From a virus (Duplodnaviria; Heunggongvirae; Uroviricota; Caudoviricetes), in IMG/VR virus record IMGVR_UViG_2734482572_000009: a stretch of DNA of 4,509 bases, one strand, 5' to 3'. Below are positions 61-4,509 of this stretch, piece by piece (the first letter of the stretch is position 1; each line of letters begins with the position of its first letter). Both the position numbers and the translations under genes were made by a program. The notes beneath the pieces were generated by a model. That model was not told where the DNA came from, did no database searches, and saw nothing but the letters and a program-made list of their open reading frames with translations.

Positions 61-414
61 TTAAAAAAAGAACAAATGGTAGTGTCCGCTATTGCCAGTA
101 CACCTCAATTGCTCTGCGGCTTCGCTCAGAGCTGGCGTATGTTCCCGGCCTACTGATTCACACAGGTAATCAACGAAACCGGACACCAGTTTTCGTTCGC
201 GAGGCGTGATCGCCCCACCGACCGGAGTCCAGTAATCGAAACCCAGTTGCAGGAGTTTGAAAAAACGCTTGTGGAATGCGTAGTTACACACACGCTTAAA
301 GTCTGCGTGTATCCACTCACCTATTTTGATTTGATGCAGAAAATCGCAACTCTCCGGCGTCGCCGGGAGAAGTAATCCGGAAGAGGTTTGTTTGACCAGT
401 TGTATATGTGCCAT
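61..414 (-). CDS. hypothetical small prophage protein, about 117 aa from the ATG at 412-414; the ORF track extends it to a TTG at 454-456 (131 aa)
   Basis: Open frame ending at TAA 61-63. The ATG at 412-414 is preceded by GGAG about 7 nt upstream; the TTG at 456 overlaps the upstream stop (TTGA) but has no well-spaced SD. Protein is Cys/His/aromatic rich; no family recognised. Co-directional with and directly downstream of the 453..740 ORF. Confidence 0.5.
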   Translation of the reverse strand: MAHIQLVKQTSSGLLLPATPESCDFLHQIKIGEWIHADFKRVCNYAFHKRFFKLLQLGFDYWTPVGGAITPRERKLVSGFVDYLCESVGREHTPALSEAAEQLRCTGNSGHYHLFFF

Positions 415-452
415 CGGCTTTCTCCGGTGGCACGGTGTTACACAGCAGGAGT

Positions 453-740
453 TCAATCCTGCTCAAGATTGTAGATGAGTTTATTCTTCAGCAAAAGCAG
501 AAAACCAGCCTTAAAACCAATCTCTTTCAAAACCCGTAATGATGTGACAAATTCGTCCTCACGCAAAATAAAACCGTCCGTCAGAAGTCCATTACAAAAA
601 TAAAATAACACAGCACCGCTCTTCCTTTGTTGAGATTGCAAACATCTAATGCGGCAATGGCTGACAATCGCTCCATTCTCAACGCGCACAGCATAGAGGC
701 CATTTTCACTAAAAATTTCACGCAATTCTTCGATTTTCAT
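453..740 (-). CDS. hypothetical prophage protein, 95 aa
   Basis: ATG at 738-740 preceded by GGAAGGA about 8 nt upstream; stop TGA 453-455. Sits about 75 nt downstream of a sigma70-like promoter (822..849). No family recognised. Confidence 0.5.
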   Translation of the reverse strand: MKIEELREIFSENGLYAVRVENGAIVSHCRIRCLQSQQRKSGAVLFYFCNGLLTDGFILREDEFVTSLRVLKEIGFKAGFLLLLKNKLIYNLEQD

Positions 741-821
741 CTTCAGAATCCTTCCAGATAAATAGCTCTCCCCTGTTCGGGGTCCATCCCTCTTCTCCCT
801 GCGCGCTACTTAAGTGAGTCG

Positions 822-849
822 ATTCTATCTGCGAAGGTGCGCGAATCAA
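822..849 (-). promoter_or_regulatory. putative sigma70 promoter for the 453..740 / 61..414 cassette
   Basis: Minus-strand reading TTGATT (849-844), 16-nt spacer, TAGAAT (827-822). Lies just downstream of the hok terminator-like hairpin and about 75 nt upstream of the 740 start. Confidence 0.35.
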
Positions 850-865
850 ATTCACCGGAAATAAA

Positions 866-914
866 CAACAAAAAACCCGCCGAAACGCTGAGAGATCACA
901 GCGATGGGCGGGTT
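866..914 (-). terminator. putative intrinsic terminator at the 3' end of the hok transcript
   Basis: Minus-strand RNA: AACCCGCC, interrupted loop containing an inner CGCUG/CAGCG helix, GGCGGGUU, then UUUUUUGUUGUUU. GC-rich interrupted hairpin followed by a U-tract, about 80 nt past the hok stop. Confidence 0.4.
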
Positions 915-953
915 AAGTGCGGGTGCGTTGAGGATGCCTGACACATCAGAGGT

Positions 954-981
954 GGGCGGGGATGGGATCAGCTCCCCGCCC
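954..981 (-). other. GC-rich perfect stem-loop immediately 3' of hok (mRNA structural element, not a canonical terminator)
   Basis: GGGCGGGGA (954-962) and TCCCCGCCC (973-981) form a 9-bp perfect inverted repeat with a 10-nt loop. No U-tract follows on either strand. Position matches the 3' hairpin of plasmid R1 hok mRNA. Confidence 0.35.
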
Positions 982-989
982 GGTCACTC

Positions 990-1145
990 TTACTTCCTGG
1001 ATTCGTAGTCTACGAAGACAGCGACCTCCGTCTGGCCGGTTCGGATTCGTACCTCACAGAGGTCTTTCCTCGTTACCAGTGCCGTCACTATGACGGTTAA
1101 ACAGATGACGATCAGGGCGATTAACATCGCCTTTTGCTGCTTCAT
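990..1145 (-). CDS. hok: Hok/Gef family type I toxin (HokD/RelF-like small membrane peptide, 51 aa)
   Basis: Translation MKQQKAMLIALIVICLTVIVTALVTRKDLCEVRIRTGQTEVAVFVDYESRK: hydrophobic transmembrane segment plus conserved RKDLCEV and TGQTEVA motifs typical of Hok/Gef. AAGGAG SD about 9 nt upstream of the ATG at 1143-1145. The ORF track's 990..1202 is the same frame extended to an upstream ATG. Confidence 0.9.
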   Translation of the reverse strand: MKQQKAMLIALIVICLTVIVTALVTRKDLCEVRIRTGQTEVAVFVDYESRK

Positions 1146-1158
1146 AGCCTGCTTCTCC

Positions 1159-1187
1159 TTGCCTTTCGGCATGTAAGAGGCTAACCT
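1159..1187 (+). promoter_or_regulatory. putative sok promoter (antisense to hok leader)
   Basis: Plus-strand TTGCCT (1159-1164), 17-nt spacer ending GTAAGAGGC, TAACCT (1182-1187). Same architecture and position as the R1 sok promoter as I recall it (TTGCGC-N17-TATCCT). The -10 is weak as written. Confidence 0.3.
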
Positions 1188-1193
1188 ACATGT

Positions 1194-1266
1194 GCAAAGC
1201 ATGAAATTGGCCTCAGATTAATGTTAAGCGTCTTGCCGGACGCGTAATGTTAACTGGGGCTTTTCT
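1194..1266 (+). ncRNA. sok: putative Sok-like antisense RNA
   Basis: Antisense to the hok leader, covering the upstream in-frame ATG (1200-1202) and its GAGG SD. Ends in GGGGCTTTTCTCT, resembling the R1 Sok 3' end. Boundaries inferred, not measured. Confidence 0.35.
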
Positions 1267-1321
1267 CTATCTGCCTTTTGGTGTTCATGCCTGAAGCAGA
1301 TAGCCTCAAGCACCCGCAGTC

Positions 1322-1351
1322 ATTCTACTTACCTCGCCAATATGAAATCAA
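1322..1351 (-). promoter_or_regulatory. putative hok promoter
   Basis: Minus-strand TTGATT (1351-1346), 18-nt spacer, TAGAAT (1327-1322). Predicted TSS near 1315 gives a 5' end GGGUGCUUGAGGCUAUCUGC, close to the R1 hok mRNA 5' end (GGCGCUUGAGGCUUUCUGCC). Confidence 0.4.
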
Positions 1352-1372
1352 TCAGAAAGGTGCCCCATAAAA

Positions 1373-2059
1373 TCACTCCTTCTCTTCTTTACCGTAGTGG
1401 AGTTGACCAATTTTGATAAGAGGGCGTCCCTGAGATTTGCGGTGTAGATTGGTATCGCGCAGAGAATACACACAGCCACAATATTCCTGCTGATAGAATT
1501 TTTCGCGCTTGCTGATTTCAATCATACGGGACGAGCCGCCCTGCTTGCGCCAGTTATAATCCCAGTACACCATGCCCGGATAATGCGCGACGGCTCGCCG
1601 CCCACAGTCGTTAACCTGCTGCATATTTTTCCAGCGTGAAATGCCCAGTGAACTGCTGATCACACTGAAACCATTTTCAGCGGCGTACAGCGCTGTCCGC
1701 TCAAAACGCATGTCAAAACACATGGTGCAACGGATCCCTCGTTCGGGCTCCCATTCCATTCCTTTGGCTCGTTCAAACCAGTTGTCTGTGTCGTAATCAG
1801 CATCAATAAACGGCACGCCGTGTTGTTCAGCAAAGCGAATATTCTCATCCTTACGAATTAAATACTCTTTCTGAGGATGAATGTTCGGGTTGTAGAAAAA
1901 GATGGTGTAGTCGATTCCCGAGGCCTGAAGCGCCTCCATCACCTCACCGGAACATGGAGCACAGCAAGAGTGCAGTAGTAGTTTGTTTGCCCCGTTTGGG
2001 AGCTCCAATTTGGGCCGTTTGAAATCAGCAACTGTCATAAATATGTTTATTGGGGTCAT
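1373..2059 (-). CDS. queH: epoxyqueuosine reductase QueH homologue (DUF208 family), 228 aa
   Basis: Contains the motifs I associate with QueH: [11 protein letters not shown] near the N-terminus, [22 protein letters not shown], and C-terminal [15 protein letters not shown] at 2057-2059 with no obvious SD; alternative ATG at 2036-2038. The internal 1660..1848 ORF is an overlapping alternate-frame artefact. Confidence 0.8.
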
Positions 2060-2206
2060 AAAAATATCAAAGAGTGTAGCATTAGAACGGGGCTATCGGA
2101 AACAGATGTGTGACTGCTCCCCGCCCTTTCGGGTGGTCTCCTGATGATTTGAGGGTGCAGAAATCCCTCCGGTTAAGGATTAAATTTTTAACAGTGCTAA
2201 ATTTAA

Positions 2207-2620
2207 TTATTCAGTTCTGGATTTTGTCGCCCTGCGTATCCGCGCTTTCGCGTTACGCTCAATCTGTATCAGCTTTTCTATATTTCTCCGCCTTTCCTGT
2301 TCCTCCTGGCGCAATAGCCTTACATCATCTGCCAGTCTGGTTTCTCTTTTTGCCACAGAGAGCATCCAGTCAAACGGCTCCACAACCGCACCGCAGATTT
2401 TACAGCGGACCTGACGCTCTTTTTCGTCAACCCGTACAGAGGCGTGATGGCAATATGGTCTTTCCGATGGCTCATAAAGAAAATTAACCTGATTACGAGG
2501 GTCATCCTCTTTTACCGGAAATAAAACGATATTGCTTAACTCATCTTCTGGTTTTATTTCCATGCTCCTCTCCTTTGATGCGAATGCCAGCGGTAATTGA
2601 AGCCTGATAGCTAATTTCAT
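2207..2620 (-). CDS. small Cys/His-containing hypothetical protein with putative zinc-ribbon-like motif (137 aa; more likely 118 aa from the ATG at 2561-2563)
   Basis: ATG at 2618-2620 abuts the upstream stop (TGAATG). The internal ATG at 2561-2563 has a strong SD (AAGGAGAGGAGC, 6-nt spacing). Motif YCHH..(14)..CKIC followed by a basic, coiled-coil-like Arg/Glu-rich tail. No family recognised. Confidence 0.6.
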   Translation of the reverse strand: MKLAIRLQLPLAFASKERSMEIKPEDELSNIVLFPVKEDDPRNQVNFLYEPSERPYCHHASVRVDEKERQVRCKICGAVVEPFDWMLSVAKRETRLADDVRLLRQEEQERRRNIEKLIQIERNAKARIRRATKSRTE

Positions 2621-3043
2621 TCACAGTATCGCCTCCTGAAAATTACCCTGATAGAAAGCCAGTACACGCTGCATAGCTTCGCTCTTCCGGCACTCGCGAC
2701 AGATTATATTCAGGCGCCTGTCGTAGCGGCGTATTTCTCCGTCAGGTAATGACCAGATAAGGTCCGGATCAACAACAACCGGTTTCCTCACCTTTACTCT
2801 CGAGAGTTTTTTGCGGGCGCTTTGCCAGTCCTTGCGAGCCTGTTCAGACGGGAATAAGCCGTAGCCAGAATTATATACATCACCACTTGCGACCAGTTCT
2901 ATGCATAAGCGACCGACAGACGCACGACTGATACCTGTTTCATCTGACAACTGCCGAATCGTGACCCGACCGTCCTGATGCACGAGTTCCACAATTCGCG
3001 TCTTCAGTTCTTCCCGCTGTTCGGGAGTAAAAGGTTTCGCCAT
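2621..3043 (-). CDS. winged-helix HTH protein, tentatively Ren-like (lambda ren position), 140 aa
   Basis: ATG at 3041-3043 with AGGAGG SD 4 nt upstream, 14 nt after the DnaC-like stop. N-terminal HTH-like segment (VTIRQLSDETGISRASVGRLCIEL). The C-terminal CRECRKSEAMQRVLAFY resembles what I recall of the lambda Ren C-terminus, and the gene sits directly after the P-equivalent gene as ren does in lambda. Confidence 0.65.
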   Translation of the reverse strand: MAKPFTPEQREELKTRIVELVHQDGRVTIRQLSDETGISRASVGRLCIELVASGDVYNSGYGLFPSEQARKDWQSARKKLSRVKVRKPVVVDPDLIWSLPDGEIRRYDRRLNIICRECRKSEAMQRVLAFYQGNFQEAIL

Positions 3044-3057
3044 AAATCCTCCTGAAA

Positions 3058-3740
3058 CTACTTAACAACCCTCGAATGGCTAACATTCGGACGCCAGCTC
3101 TCCCAGTTAAAATTCACCCAGCGCCCGNNNNNNNNNNNNNNNNNNNNNNNNNNNNNNNNNNNNNNNNNNNNNNNNNNNNNNNNNNNNNNNNNNNNNNNNN
3201 NNNNNNNNNNNNNNNNNNNNNNNNNNNNNNNNNNNNNNNNNNNNNNNNNNNNNNNNNNNNNNNNNNNNNNNNNNNNNNNNNNNNNNNNNNNNNNNNNNNN
3301 NNNNNNNNNNNNNNNNNNNNNNNNNNNNNNNNNNNNNNNNNNNNNNNNNNNNNNNNNNNNNNNNNNNNNNNNNNNNNGATAGCTGCCGCTAAGTGATTCT
3401 TCCCGGTACCAGGTTTTCCGCTGAACGCAAAATTTGTACACCCGGTCATCAGTTCATCGGCGATGGATTTCGCCTGGCTTAACGCGTATCGCTGGCCGTC
3501 GTTCTGCACCTGGTAATTCGCAAACGAGCATTTACGGTGCAACGGCTGGATGCCTGAGCGATTCAGAATTTTTTCCACCCGCAACTGGCGATTCAGGCGG
3601 TTGATCTCCTCGCTACGTTTCTGGCCTTCAGCAAGTTGCCACTCGCGCCACTCCGCTACCGTTCTGAATGGGGCGGTTACATGTGGCGGGGTCAGTCGGC
3701 GGATGCGTTCCAGAACGCCGCCTGTCGCAATATTTTTCAT
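3058..3740 (-). CDS. DnaC-like replication protein / helicase loader (lambdoid prophage P-equivalent, YdaV-like), interrupted by assembly gap
   Basis: N-terminal 121 codons (3378-3740) align closely with E. coli DnaC through the Walker A motif FSGKPGTGKNHLAAAI. After the N-run, the C-terminal 22 codons (GRWVNFNWESWRPNVSHSRVVK, stop TAG 3058-3060) match the DnaC C-terminus (LWVIFNWDSY...). The frame differs across the gap, so the gap length is arbitrary. ATG at 3738-3740. Confidence 0.85.
3128..3377. other. assembly gap (250 N)
   Basis: Continuous run of N from 3128 to 3377 inside the DnaC-like gene. Confidence 0.97.
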
Positions 3741-3746
3741 GGTCCG

Positions 3747-4016
3747 TTACCCCCTGAAGCCTGGCGGGATCGCACTGTCCGGCAACGAGACGGTGTTAAC
3801 CTGTCGGAGCAACGTCTCAGGCCGAACACCTTTCGGCGCGAACAGGCCCTGGTATTCATTGGCGATGCTGTGTCGAATCACCTGCTCAGGTGTAAAACCC
3901 TGCTGACGGAATTTTTCCAGTTCCCGTATCGCCCCGTTAGCGCCCTGCTCCGTTCGAATCGGTTTTCGCAATGCCTGTCTGAACCGGACCCACTCATGCC
4001 AGAGTGTTTCCGGCAA
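3747..4016 (-). CDS. DnaT-like (primosomal protein I) C-terminal domain of a phage replication initiator; apparent frameshifted fragment, coding frame continues upstream to 4082 without a start codon
   Basis: C-terminus RQVNTVSLPDSAIPPGFRG closely matches the E. coli DnaT C-terminus ([20 protein letters not shown]); PDW.P motif also shared. The listed start is a TTG at 4014-4016, but the same frame stays open and protein-like (SPPRQKRASKKFEPEAIELPDW) up to a stop at 4083-4085 with no ATG/GTG/TTG. Stop TAA 3747-3749, 6 nt before the DnaC-like ATG. Confidence 0.7.
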   Translation of the reverse strand: MPETLWHEWVRFRQALRKPIRTEQGANGAIRELEKFRQQGFTPEQVIRHSIANEYQGLFAPKGVRPETLLRQVNTVSLPDSAIPPGFRG

Positions 4017-4094
4017 CCAATCGGGCAGCTCAATAGCCTCCGGCTCGAATTTTTTAGACGCTCGTTTTTGGCGAGGGGGAGATCAGTATTTAGA

Positions 4095-4115
4095 TCTTCC
4101 TCTTCCTCTTCCTCT
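4095..4115. repeat. tandem hexanucleotide repeat (TCTTCC)x3 plus TCT
   Basis: Plus strand 4095-4112 is TCTTCC three times. On the minus strand in the third frame it encodes EEEEEE(D), an acidic linker. Confidence 0.6.
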
Positions 4116-4185
4116 GGTAACGCTTTTTGATCCGTTTGTGTAACGCTGGCAGCGTTACCTTTTCGTTTCAGTTCGCGTATTTTTG

Positions 4186-4509
4186 TTACTCGCTCGTTTG
4201 TAACCGCCCGTTTTTTTTAGAGCTTTTTCCGTTATGACGTTCAAAGTTAGGTAGAGAAAGCCCTCCGTCATTTTCGACCAGCCATCCAACCTGAATTAAC
4301 GCATCAGCAAAACCAGACATAAAAGTGATGCGATCTATTGCACTTTTTGTAACGCCGCGAGCGTTACAATCTGCATTACCGTCTATCATTTGTTGATCCG
4401 CCCATGCCCAGAAGCGAATAACCTGAGGTAGCCTGAGTTTAACGGACACTCCTTCCTGAAATAGAATGGCATCAGAAGGAGCTAATAATGAGCAGAAAAA
4501 CCCAACGTT
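4186..4509 (-). CDS. N-terminal segment of the replication initiator (probably the same gene as 3747..4082 before frameshifting); 5' end beyond window
   Basis: Frame is open from the window edge (4509) to TAA at 4186-4188. The ORF track starts at GTG 4447-4449, but the adjacent GGAAGGA has no usable spacing, so the true start is probably outside the window. Ends ...NFERHNGKSSKKNGRLQTSE. No family recognised. Confidence 0.5.
   Translation of the reverse strand, partial: NVGFFCSLLAPSDAILFQEGVSVKLRLPQVIRFWAWADQQMIDGNADCNARGVTKSAIDRITFMSGFADALIQVGWLVENDGGLSLPNFERHNGKSSKKNGRLQTSE

Follow-up and report, generated by a model that had tools for sequence, protein, structure and literature searches.

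An intact queH gene in prophages of Escherichia coli, a probable cobalamin-independent route to queuosine in lysogens

Introduction

Queuosine (Q) occupies the wobble position of the tRNA-Asp, -Asn, -His and -Tyr, and QueH is an iron-sulfur tRNA epoxyqueuosine(34) reductase. We have analysed a queH gene located on the minus strand of a stretch of 4,509 nucleotides, hereafter designated as the window, that originates from the tailed-phage (Caudoviricetes) record IMGVR_UViG_2734482572_000009 of IMG/VR and closely resembles a prophage of Escherichia coli. This organism does not synthesize cobalamin (vitamin B12) de novo, and it relies on the BtuB-mediated uptake of this cofactor. In 1988, Frey and colleagues reportedly described, to go by the title of their article, that the conversion of epoxyqueuosine (oQ) to Q depends on cobamide in both E. 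coli and Salmonella.

The enzyme that completes Q in E. coli, QueG (b4166), is dependent on cobalamin and a [4Fe-4S] center (PMC4646009, PMC5175355). In the literature, QueH is presented as a non-orthologous enzyme that replaces QueG at the last step of Q synthesis and does not need cobalamin (PMC5372724, PMC5615194, PMC6461909), both enzymes converting oQ-tRNA into Q-tRNA, and E. coli is presented as able to supply the substrate of QueH through Tgt, QueA and the preQ1 pathway (PMC5372724). QueG and QueH perform the same reaction with unrelated folds and sets of cofactors. In viruses, a 2019 survey of the queuosine and archaeosine genes reported no homologues of QueA, QueG or QueH in the genomes that it analysed (PMC6884629), and our literature searches brought up no paper dealing with a queH gene in E. 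coli prophages.

Using a combination of profile searches, alignments, structure prediction and comparisons of genomic neighbourhoods, we propose that the queH gene of the window is an intact, selectively kept and captured moron, which probably provides the lysogen with a B12-independent completion of Q.

Sequence, cysteine ligands and predicted structure of the prophage QueH protein

The minus-strand open reading frame (ORF) extends from an ATG at position 2059 to the TGA stop at 1373-1375 and specifies 228 amino acids. A second in-frame ATG occurs at position 2038, and the use of the first one would add seven residues to the protein. We regard the second ATG as probably the true start, which defines a coding sequence (CDS) of 221 codons for amino acids at 1373..2038, on the basis of the following lines of evidence. 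First, the Prokaryotic Genome Annotation Pipeline (PGAP) uses the ATG 2038 (CDS WP_012421537.1). Second, the chromosomal orthologues begin at the equivalent methionine. Third, the homology with the Rac-type allele, the most divergent of the prophage alleles, ends four nucleotides upstream of this ATG.

A reading of the DNA made from its letters and ORFs only (hereafter the sequence-only reading) had noticed the signature motifs of QueH in the translation, and all those it quoted are present, namely HSCCAPCS (residues 30-37 in the numbering of the 228-residue product, which is kept hereafter), NPNIHP (57-62), RCTMCF (110-115) and YCGCVYS (193-199). The Pfam profile QueH (PF02677, formerly DUF208) matched the protein from end to end (positions 1-174 of the 175 of the profile), far beyond chance (E 1.9e-65; 220.6 bits for a cut-off of 23.5), and the cysteines serving as cluster ligands are intact, in agreement with the proposal that this is a full-length homologue of QueH. 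Similarly, a phmmer search against all chains of the Protein Data Bank (PDB) retrieved only the QueH protein of Thermotoga maritima (7lc5 and its variants; E 5e-22, residues 27-203). No NCBIfam family was found with the QueH protein at E <= 0.01; therefore, the name QueH given by PGAP must have another basis.

The cysteines were examined in a MAFFT alignment comprising T. maritima QueH and 86 cluster representatives (clusters at 50% identity). In this alignment the residues C32, C33, C36, C111, C114, C194 and C196 of the prophage protein correspond to C9, C10, D13, C87, C90, C169 and C171 of T. maritima QueH, respectively, and the conserved cysteines are all kept. A second alignment, of 45 full-length relatives whose identity goes down to 35%, shows no variation at any of these seven cysteines. 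The motifs to which they belong, CCxP(C/D), RCxxC and CGC, are those that, in the T. maritima structure, reportedly bind the [4Fe-4S] cluster together with a neighbouring iron. The position of D13 in T. maritima is occupied by a cysteine in the prophage QueH and in 70 of the 75 sampled representatives that have no gap at this place, showing that the aspartate of T. maritima, and not the cysteine of the window, is the unusual state. According to their titles, two PDB entries for T. maritima QueH are mutants of these positions, 9D86 (C9S) and 9DCO (D13N).

The AlphaFold2 model of the prophage QueH, calculated on the alignment of 45 sequences, has a mean predicted local distance difference test (pLDDT) score of 93.9 and a predicted template-modelling (pTM) score of 0.90. 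It superposes on 7lc5 with a target-normalised template-modelling (TM) score of 0.93 and a root-mean-square deviation (rmsd) of 1.2 Å over 179 columns (Foldseek E 7.7e-15), and the top hits of Foldseek in the PDB are five entries of T. maritima QueH (E 5e-15 to 1e-12, TM 0.90-0.93, rmsd 1.2-1.9 Å). The next class of fold, the PP-loop-type sulfurtransferases TtuA and LarE, is ten orders of magnitude weaker (E ~1e-5).

Thus, the prophage QueH is alike T. maritima QueH (7LC5, 7LC7, 9DEU) in its full-length profile match, its predicted fold and its CCxP(C/D), RCxxC and CGC motifs, whereas it is only about 30% identical to it and possesses 19 additional N-terminal residues (26 from the upstream ATG) and about 25 basic C-terminal residues, both extensions being shared with the proteobacterial orthologues. 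Together, the profile, the ligand alignments and the structural model indicate that the prophage gene is, as judged in silico, an intact member of the QueH family.

Conservation and distribution of queH in prophages

The pairwise comparison of four prophage or phage alleles with the Nei-Gojobori method yielded ratios of nonsynonymous to synonymous divergence (dN/dS) of 0.03-0.08, with dN values of 0.010-0.016 and dS values of up to 0.43. The reading frame is intact in all 87 copies of phage or prophage queH, 86 of which are 666 nucleotides long and one 669. These 86 copies represent 20 distinct alleles, in which 45 codons vary synonymously only and nine change the amino acid, none of the latter lying at a ligand or motif position. 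From these codon comparisons, prophage queH is under strong purifying selection, i.e., selectively maintained.

It is therefore quite improbable that queH is a functionless passenger, in other words a recently captured host gene that has not had the time to decay. Such a passenger could be expected from the fact that the accessory slots of prophages gather assorted cargo, and that E. coli already possesses QueG. It is difficult to reconcile with alleles that differ by a dS of about 0.4 and yet keep so low a dN/dS, with 87 intact copies out of 87, and with the occurrence of queH in several prophage backbones and in 18% of the complete genomes. This last figure was obtained by megablast, which detected queH in 995 of the 5426 complete genomes of E. 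coli (985 at >=80% coverage), including O157:H7, O104:H4, ST131 and a derivative of E. coli B. By contrast, queG occurs in 5426 of these 5426 genomes; hence, QueG belongs to the core of E. coli, while queH is accessory.

The genomic context of queH was read in seven cases, namely the prophage of E. coli FDAARGOS_944, the Rac prophage, a Qin-like prophage of an E. coli B derivative, prophages of O157:H7, ST131 and E. albertii, and the phage HannyBb, which is an isolated temperate phage. In all seven, queH follows a DUF977 gene, either immediately or with one small ORF in between. In Rac, the order is racR-ydaS-ydaT-ydaU-ydaV, then the DUF977 gene, then queH, near trkG; in the B derivative (B-ZidR), queH is found at 5990-6655 of the locus read, inside a Qin-like prophage carrying dicB/dicC; and in HannyBb it also follows the DUF977 gene. 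The downstream neighbour is either hok/sok or a restriction-modification system. In the window, the DUF977 gene stands upstream of queH, and the Hok ORF and sok downstream of it, so that the sequence-only reading was right in placing queH between the replication/ren module and hok/sok, in the slot equivalent to the nin region. In O157:H7 Z892 (2306-4316 of the locus read), the genes directly downstream of queH are not hok/sok, but those of an NgoMIV-family endonuclease and a cytosine methyltransferase.

Since this slot otherwise holds defence-type cargo (hok/sok here, the restriction-modification pair in O157:H7), and since Q has been connected with the resistance of Shewanella to phages in a preprint, one may imagine that QueH has a second role unrelated to the completion of Q, for example one directed at superinfecting phages or at toxins that target the Q-tRNAs, and is kept for defence or counter-defence and not for the quality of translation. 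The protein is an ordinary QueH sequence devoid of any extra domain, and we consider such a defence-related role as pure speculation, with little probability of being correct.

Together, these seven contexts and the presence of queH in 18% of the genomes depict an accessory gene that is inserted between conserved modules and variably present, as is a moron. Like the morons of lambdoid phages, queH is a single foreign gene that separates the replication module from the nin/Q region, it neighbours other cargo and it may have a promoter of its own (see below); unlike them, the queH cassette has no terminator of its own, and its G+C content is not distinct from that of its flanks.

The identification of this gene as queH is already known, as it stands in the RefSeq annotation: the feature under the match is an 'epoxyqueuosine reductase QueH' in 75 of 75 records among the matches listed. 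As RefSeq already names the gene in E. coli genomes, its presence in the prophage slot is less notable than the sequence-only reading had held. In the phage-oriented resources, at least 215 viral contigs of IMG/VR encode a relative, the best 80 being 99-100% identical. The PHROGs family of QueH, phrog_3217, is labelled 'unknown function' and its profile starts at Met41, downstream of the CCAPC motif, and the queH gene of HannyBb is annotated as hypothetical. Phage annotation pipelines thus miss queH, and this may contribute to its absence from the surveys of the Q pathway in phages. Some matching records of the phage collection were not used as evidence for phage carriage, as they may be bacterial DNA: the 'Acinetobacter phage MD-2021a' records (328-378 kb), the unannotated Staphylococcus and Listeria records, and short faecal contigs.

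Relationship to the chromosomal queH genes of Enterobacterales

The view that enterobacteria normally use QueG, as expressed in the sequence-only reading, is correct for E. coli, but in many Enterobacterales a queH gene is present on the chromosome. QueH proteins 79-92% identical to that of the prophage occur in Scandinavium (92%), Kluyvera (91%), Enterobacter (89-90%) and Symbiopectobacterium (87%), and further in Erwinia, Providencia, Photorhabdus, Serratia, Pantoea, Dickeya and Rahnella. The closest relatives (89-92%) are thus chromosomal genes, found in Scandinavium, Kluyvera and Enterobacter, and QueH cannot be regarded as alien to the Enterobacterales.

The setting was chromosomal and unrelated to phages in all four loci of relatives whose flanks were read, with core genes as neighbours in Providencia and Erwinia. 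The order is purL-queH-glrK-glrR-glnB in Erwinia sp. P7711 and tmcA-DUF441-queH, followed further on by purC-bamC-dapA, in Providencia; the neighbours are a short-chain dehydrogenase, a metallo-beta-lactamase-fold protein and DUF1543 in Scandinavium; and DeoR, GH28 and LysR in Enterobacter. A tblastn search of 80 genome loci for the neighbours of queH in Erwinia (purL, glrK), Providencia (tmcA, DUF441, purC) and the window found them only in the E. albertii prophage and in one Providencia metagenome-assembled genome. It follows that queH occupies different places on the chromosomes of different genera, and we name no donor locus. The chromosomal neighbourhood of queH varies even within Erwinia. 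The protein is conserved well outside this order, as QueH is still 75-80% identical in Pseudomonas, Stenotrophomonas, Sphingomonas and the Neisseriaceae. Such a high conservation of the protein in a shifting neighbourhood suggests a very constrained protein, a frequent transfer of queH as a compact cassette, or both.

The proteins encoded by the chromosomal queH genes of Enterobacterales agree with the prophage QueH in length as well as at both termini. The genes differ in that the chromosomal ones lie among ordinary chromosomal genes, whereas the one studied here lies inside a prophage whose host also has QueG. On these comparisons, prophage queH is best read as an ordinary enterobacterial queH acquired by a lambdoid phage. 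The G+C content was considered as an indicator of foreign origin and rejected, for it amounts to 0.45-0.53 across queH, as in the flanks.

Upstream region and expression signals

The ORF upstream of queH stops at 2207, and the spacer, an A/T-rich leader as read from the sequence, covers positions 2039..2206 on the minus strand, of which 147 nucleotides precede the upstream ATG, as the sequence-only reading had counted. That reading had found no recognisable Shine-Dalgarno sequence and no clear promoter in this spacer, and proposed that queH is expressed by read-through from the early operon. The present analysis agrees with it on the first point, and on the second in that a scan for the two hexamers of sigma-70 promoters is empty; it departs from it in revealing a conserved element, TGCTACACT, located at 2073..2081 on the minus strand.

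This element has the form of an extended -10 (TGn followed by TAnnnT), its 3' end lies 34 nucleotides before the ATG 2038, and it is the sole match to TGNTAYAMT in the window. Its putative function as a promoter element is suggested by its conservation in 11 aligned upstream regions, four of which are from phages or prophages and seven from chromosomes (Scandinavium, Kluyvera, three Enterobacter, Symbiopectobacterium and Erwinia). Ahead of the start codon, the GCTAC block inside TGCTACACT is the sole block that does not vary among the 11 regions, and the -10-like element occurs 34-35 nucleotides before the start codon in ten of them, in flanks that are otherwise unrelated. The TG dinucleotide stands at that same distance in four of the seven chromosomal orthologues. 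Most of the closest chromosomal queH genes possess TGCTACA(C/A)T before the start, like prophage queH, and other Erwinia as well as Pantoea have kept TACACT without the TG. As the element is common to most of the closest chromosomal orthologues, with unrelated flanks, the simplest reading of these alignments is that queH would have its own promoter, which would have moved into the phage along with the gene.

Several points weigh against a promoter proper to queH. The single match to TGNTAYAMT in 4.5 kb is not significant when taken alone (0.33 expected), the -35 sequence paired with TGCTACACT is weak (TTCCGA), and the sigma-70 scan mentioned above finds no site on the minus strand upstream of queH. 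No AGGAG-like Shine-Dalgarno sequence precedes either the ATG 2059 or the ATG 2038. Furthermore, queH is co-oriented with the early rightward operon (cro-O-ydaV-DUF977) without a terminator upstream, since no terminator-like site was found on the minus strand between 900 and 2700, the spacer included. A read-through from this operon, notably during induction, is thus possible in addition to the own promoter. No riboswitch, of the preQ1 type or another, turned up in the queH leader when the window was scanned with Rfam, the sole match being sok.

The same arrangement invites the proposal that queH serves the phage cycle: transcribed mainly by read-through after induction or infection, it would raise the ratio of Q to oQ and tune the decoding of the NAU and NAC codons in favour of the phage proteins, and would not serve the lysogen. 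The position of queH, always just downstream of the replication module in the prophages read, would suit such a role, and a 2026 preprint, in which phage infection raises Q via queG in Shewanella, indicates that the oQ-to-Q step can respond to phage. We nevertheless regard this role as unlikely, for the following reasons. First, the -10-like element is common to orthologues on chromosomes, where no phage operon precedes the gene. Second, queH is intact in cryptic prophages (Rac, and the Qin-like prophage of E. coli B). Third, it is intact in the window beside a replication gene that is frameshifted. The retention of queH in such settings argues for selection in the lysogen.

Proposed role in the lysogen

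By combining these lines of evidence, we propose the following scenario. Most likely, the queH gene was taken up from the chromosome of an enterobacterium as a small cassette, consisting of a promoter/leader of about 50 nucleotides and the CDS, and would now be a moron in E. coli prophages resembling Rac, Qin and lambda, where it occupies the accessory slot after the replication module. The prophage QueH would act as a second, B12-independent enzyme for the oQ-to-Q step beside the cobalamin-dependent QueG, thereby allowing the lysogen to complete Q when corrinoids are scarce or when their uptake is lost. Such a B12-independent backup appears to be the likeliest effect of queH, because QueG needs cobalamin, which E. 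coli cannot make de novo. In line with this, the earlier suggestion that queH could be a gene of lysogenic conversion is plausible: as queG is universal in E. coli, queH would constitute a second route, and this fits with the strong purifying selection. Three elements of this scenario are inferred, namely that QueH is active in E. coli, that the lysogen expresses it from a promoter belonging to the gene, and that it brings any gain in fitness.

Three points count against this proposal. The gut corrinoids are usually available, which bears on how often QueG is limiting; the QueH family is generally highly conserved, so that the low dN/dS partly reflects a constrained fold; and we found no published experiment or expression data on prophage queH in the literature that we searched.

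The sequence-only reading had also considered that QueH could be co-opted for a 7-deazaguanine modification of nucleic acids, in this case the phage DNA. Phages do use enzymes of the Q/archaeosine pathway on DNA (PMC6884629), and the phage DpdA clusters (FolE, QueD, QueE and QueC, sometimes with QueF, ArcS or Gat-QueC) resemble the queH prophage in borrowing from the Q pathway. They differ from it in that such systems need a DpdA/TGT-like transglycosylase and usually also the preQ0 genes folE, queD, queE and queC, while the queH prophage has no annotated DpdA or preQ0 gene: according to the annotation, none occurs among the 61 features of a 40-kb stretch extending from the integrase to the tail/baseplate genes, nor in the 12.7-kb stretch of HannyBb that was examined. 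Moreover, QueH acts after QueA, on the oQ present in tRNA, and there is no queA in the regions read. Finally, the prophage protein shares 89-92% identity with ordinary QueH proteins of chromosomal origin and displays no sign of a changed specificity. The proposal is thus unsupported, and we regard a DNA-modifying role of QueH as extremely improbable.

Returning to the completion of Q in the lysogen, a wider claim can be formulated, which we advance tentatively since it seems slightly more apt to fail than to hold: queH may be a genuine gene of lysogenic conversion which, from its own promoter, uncouples the completion of Q from the supply of B12 and its BtuB-mediated uptake in about one fifth of E. 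coli. If this is true, the lysogens would carry Q, and the non-lysogens oQ, under corrinoid limitation, with possible downstream effects on the decoding of the NAU codons, on biofilm or virulence traits, or on phage susceptibility. QueH would then also represent a class of enzymes that the 2019 survey of the viral Q pathway reported as absent, namely those that are carried by phages and modify the tRNA of the host. An active QueH would be relevant to the work on Q-dependent translation, biofilm and virulence, and, if BL21 and REL606 share queH, the tRNAs of expression strains could differ from those of K-12 in their oQ/Q status under B12-free conditions. As the identity, family, structure and reaction of the gene product are known, the interest of queH now resides in the biology of a conserved, prophage-borne second route to Q.

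Organization of the prophage locus

Positions 108-3127 of the window are 99.9% identical to the prophage of E. coli FDAARGOS_944, the integrase of which adjoins ybhA. In this reference prophage, queH is preceded, in order, by the cI-like repressor/cro, ydaT, the O-like gene, ydaV (DnaC-like), DUF977 and a small Zn-ribbon ORF; it is followed by hokD, a 95-amino-acid ORF, DUF1367 (NinB-like), DUF1364, DUF1133, four tRNA genes and the lysis genes. The Pfam and PHROGs scans of the ORFs of the window are consistent with this order. The DUF977, Zn-ribbon-like, mok/hok, 95-amino-acid and NinB-like ORFs, the sok match and the promoter-like site described below are all on the minus strand.

The O-like replication gene (3747-4449) is split over three frames in the window, as compared with the intact reference CDS of 262 amino acids, whereas queH is intact. 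Its breaks, near 4073-4082 and near 4207, are in or beside homopolymer runs, and they may reflect a decay of the prophage or sequencing errors. Positions 3128-3377 are a run of 250 N that masks the central part of the DnaC-like ydaV gene. The matching stretch of the reference prophage (21756-22069) measures 314 nucleotides; hence, either the N run does not preserve the length, or the source carries a deletion of 64 nucleotides.

The last gene of the replication module, DUF977 or 'Ren-like', is located at 2621..3043 (Pfam DUF977, E 1.1e-33; phrog_142). It is separated from queH by a Zn-ribbon-like ORF at 2207..2620, which matches phrog_1621 (unknown function, E 5e-56) and is hypothetical for PGAP. 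This ORF encodes 118-137 amino acids, depending on the start (PGAP uses 2563), and has a segment with two CxxC motifs; its match to the Pfam family Zn_Ribbon_TF is below the cut-off. In other prophages, its position is taken by a methyltransferase fragment or by a different small ORF.

Downstream of queH, a promoter-like site (TTGATT-18-TAGAAT, 1322..1351) was found by a consensus scan 22 nucleotides past the queH stop, and is probably the promoter of the hok mRNA. Such consensus sites are about as numerous here as expected by chance, and this site is a lead owing to its position only. It is followed by the regulatory RNA region of hok/sok, which matches the Rfam family sok (RF01794) at 1140..1315 (117 bits for a gathering score of 59, E 3.9e-27), and by the mok/hok reading frame at 990..1202 (Pfam HOK_GEF, E 9.8e-23), which encodes a type I toxin and includes the hok CDS (990-1145), named hokD by PGAP. 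As there is no terminator between queH and this region, queH transcripts could extend into the leader of the hok mRNA and into the target of Sok.

The 95-amino-acid ORF between hok and the NinB-like gene lies at 453-740; it matches phrog_340 (unknown function) and no Pfam family, and is hypothetical in RefSeq. The DUF1367/NinB-like ORF (61-456) is cut to 131 amino acids, covering positions 1-102 of the 198 of the profile and residues 1-106 of the reference protein of 199 amino acids. Positions 1-107 of the window do not match the reference prophage, which places a junction at about position 100. Further downstream, before the lysis genes, the four tRNA genes of the FDAARGOS_944 prophage (17102-17412) specify tRNA-Gly, -Thr, -Arg and -Ile, none of which is a Q-modified tRNA.

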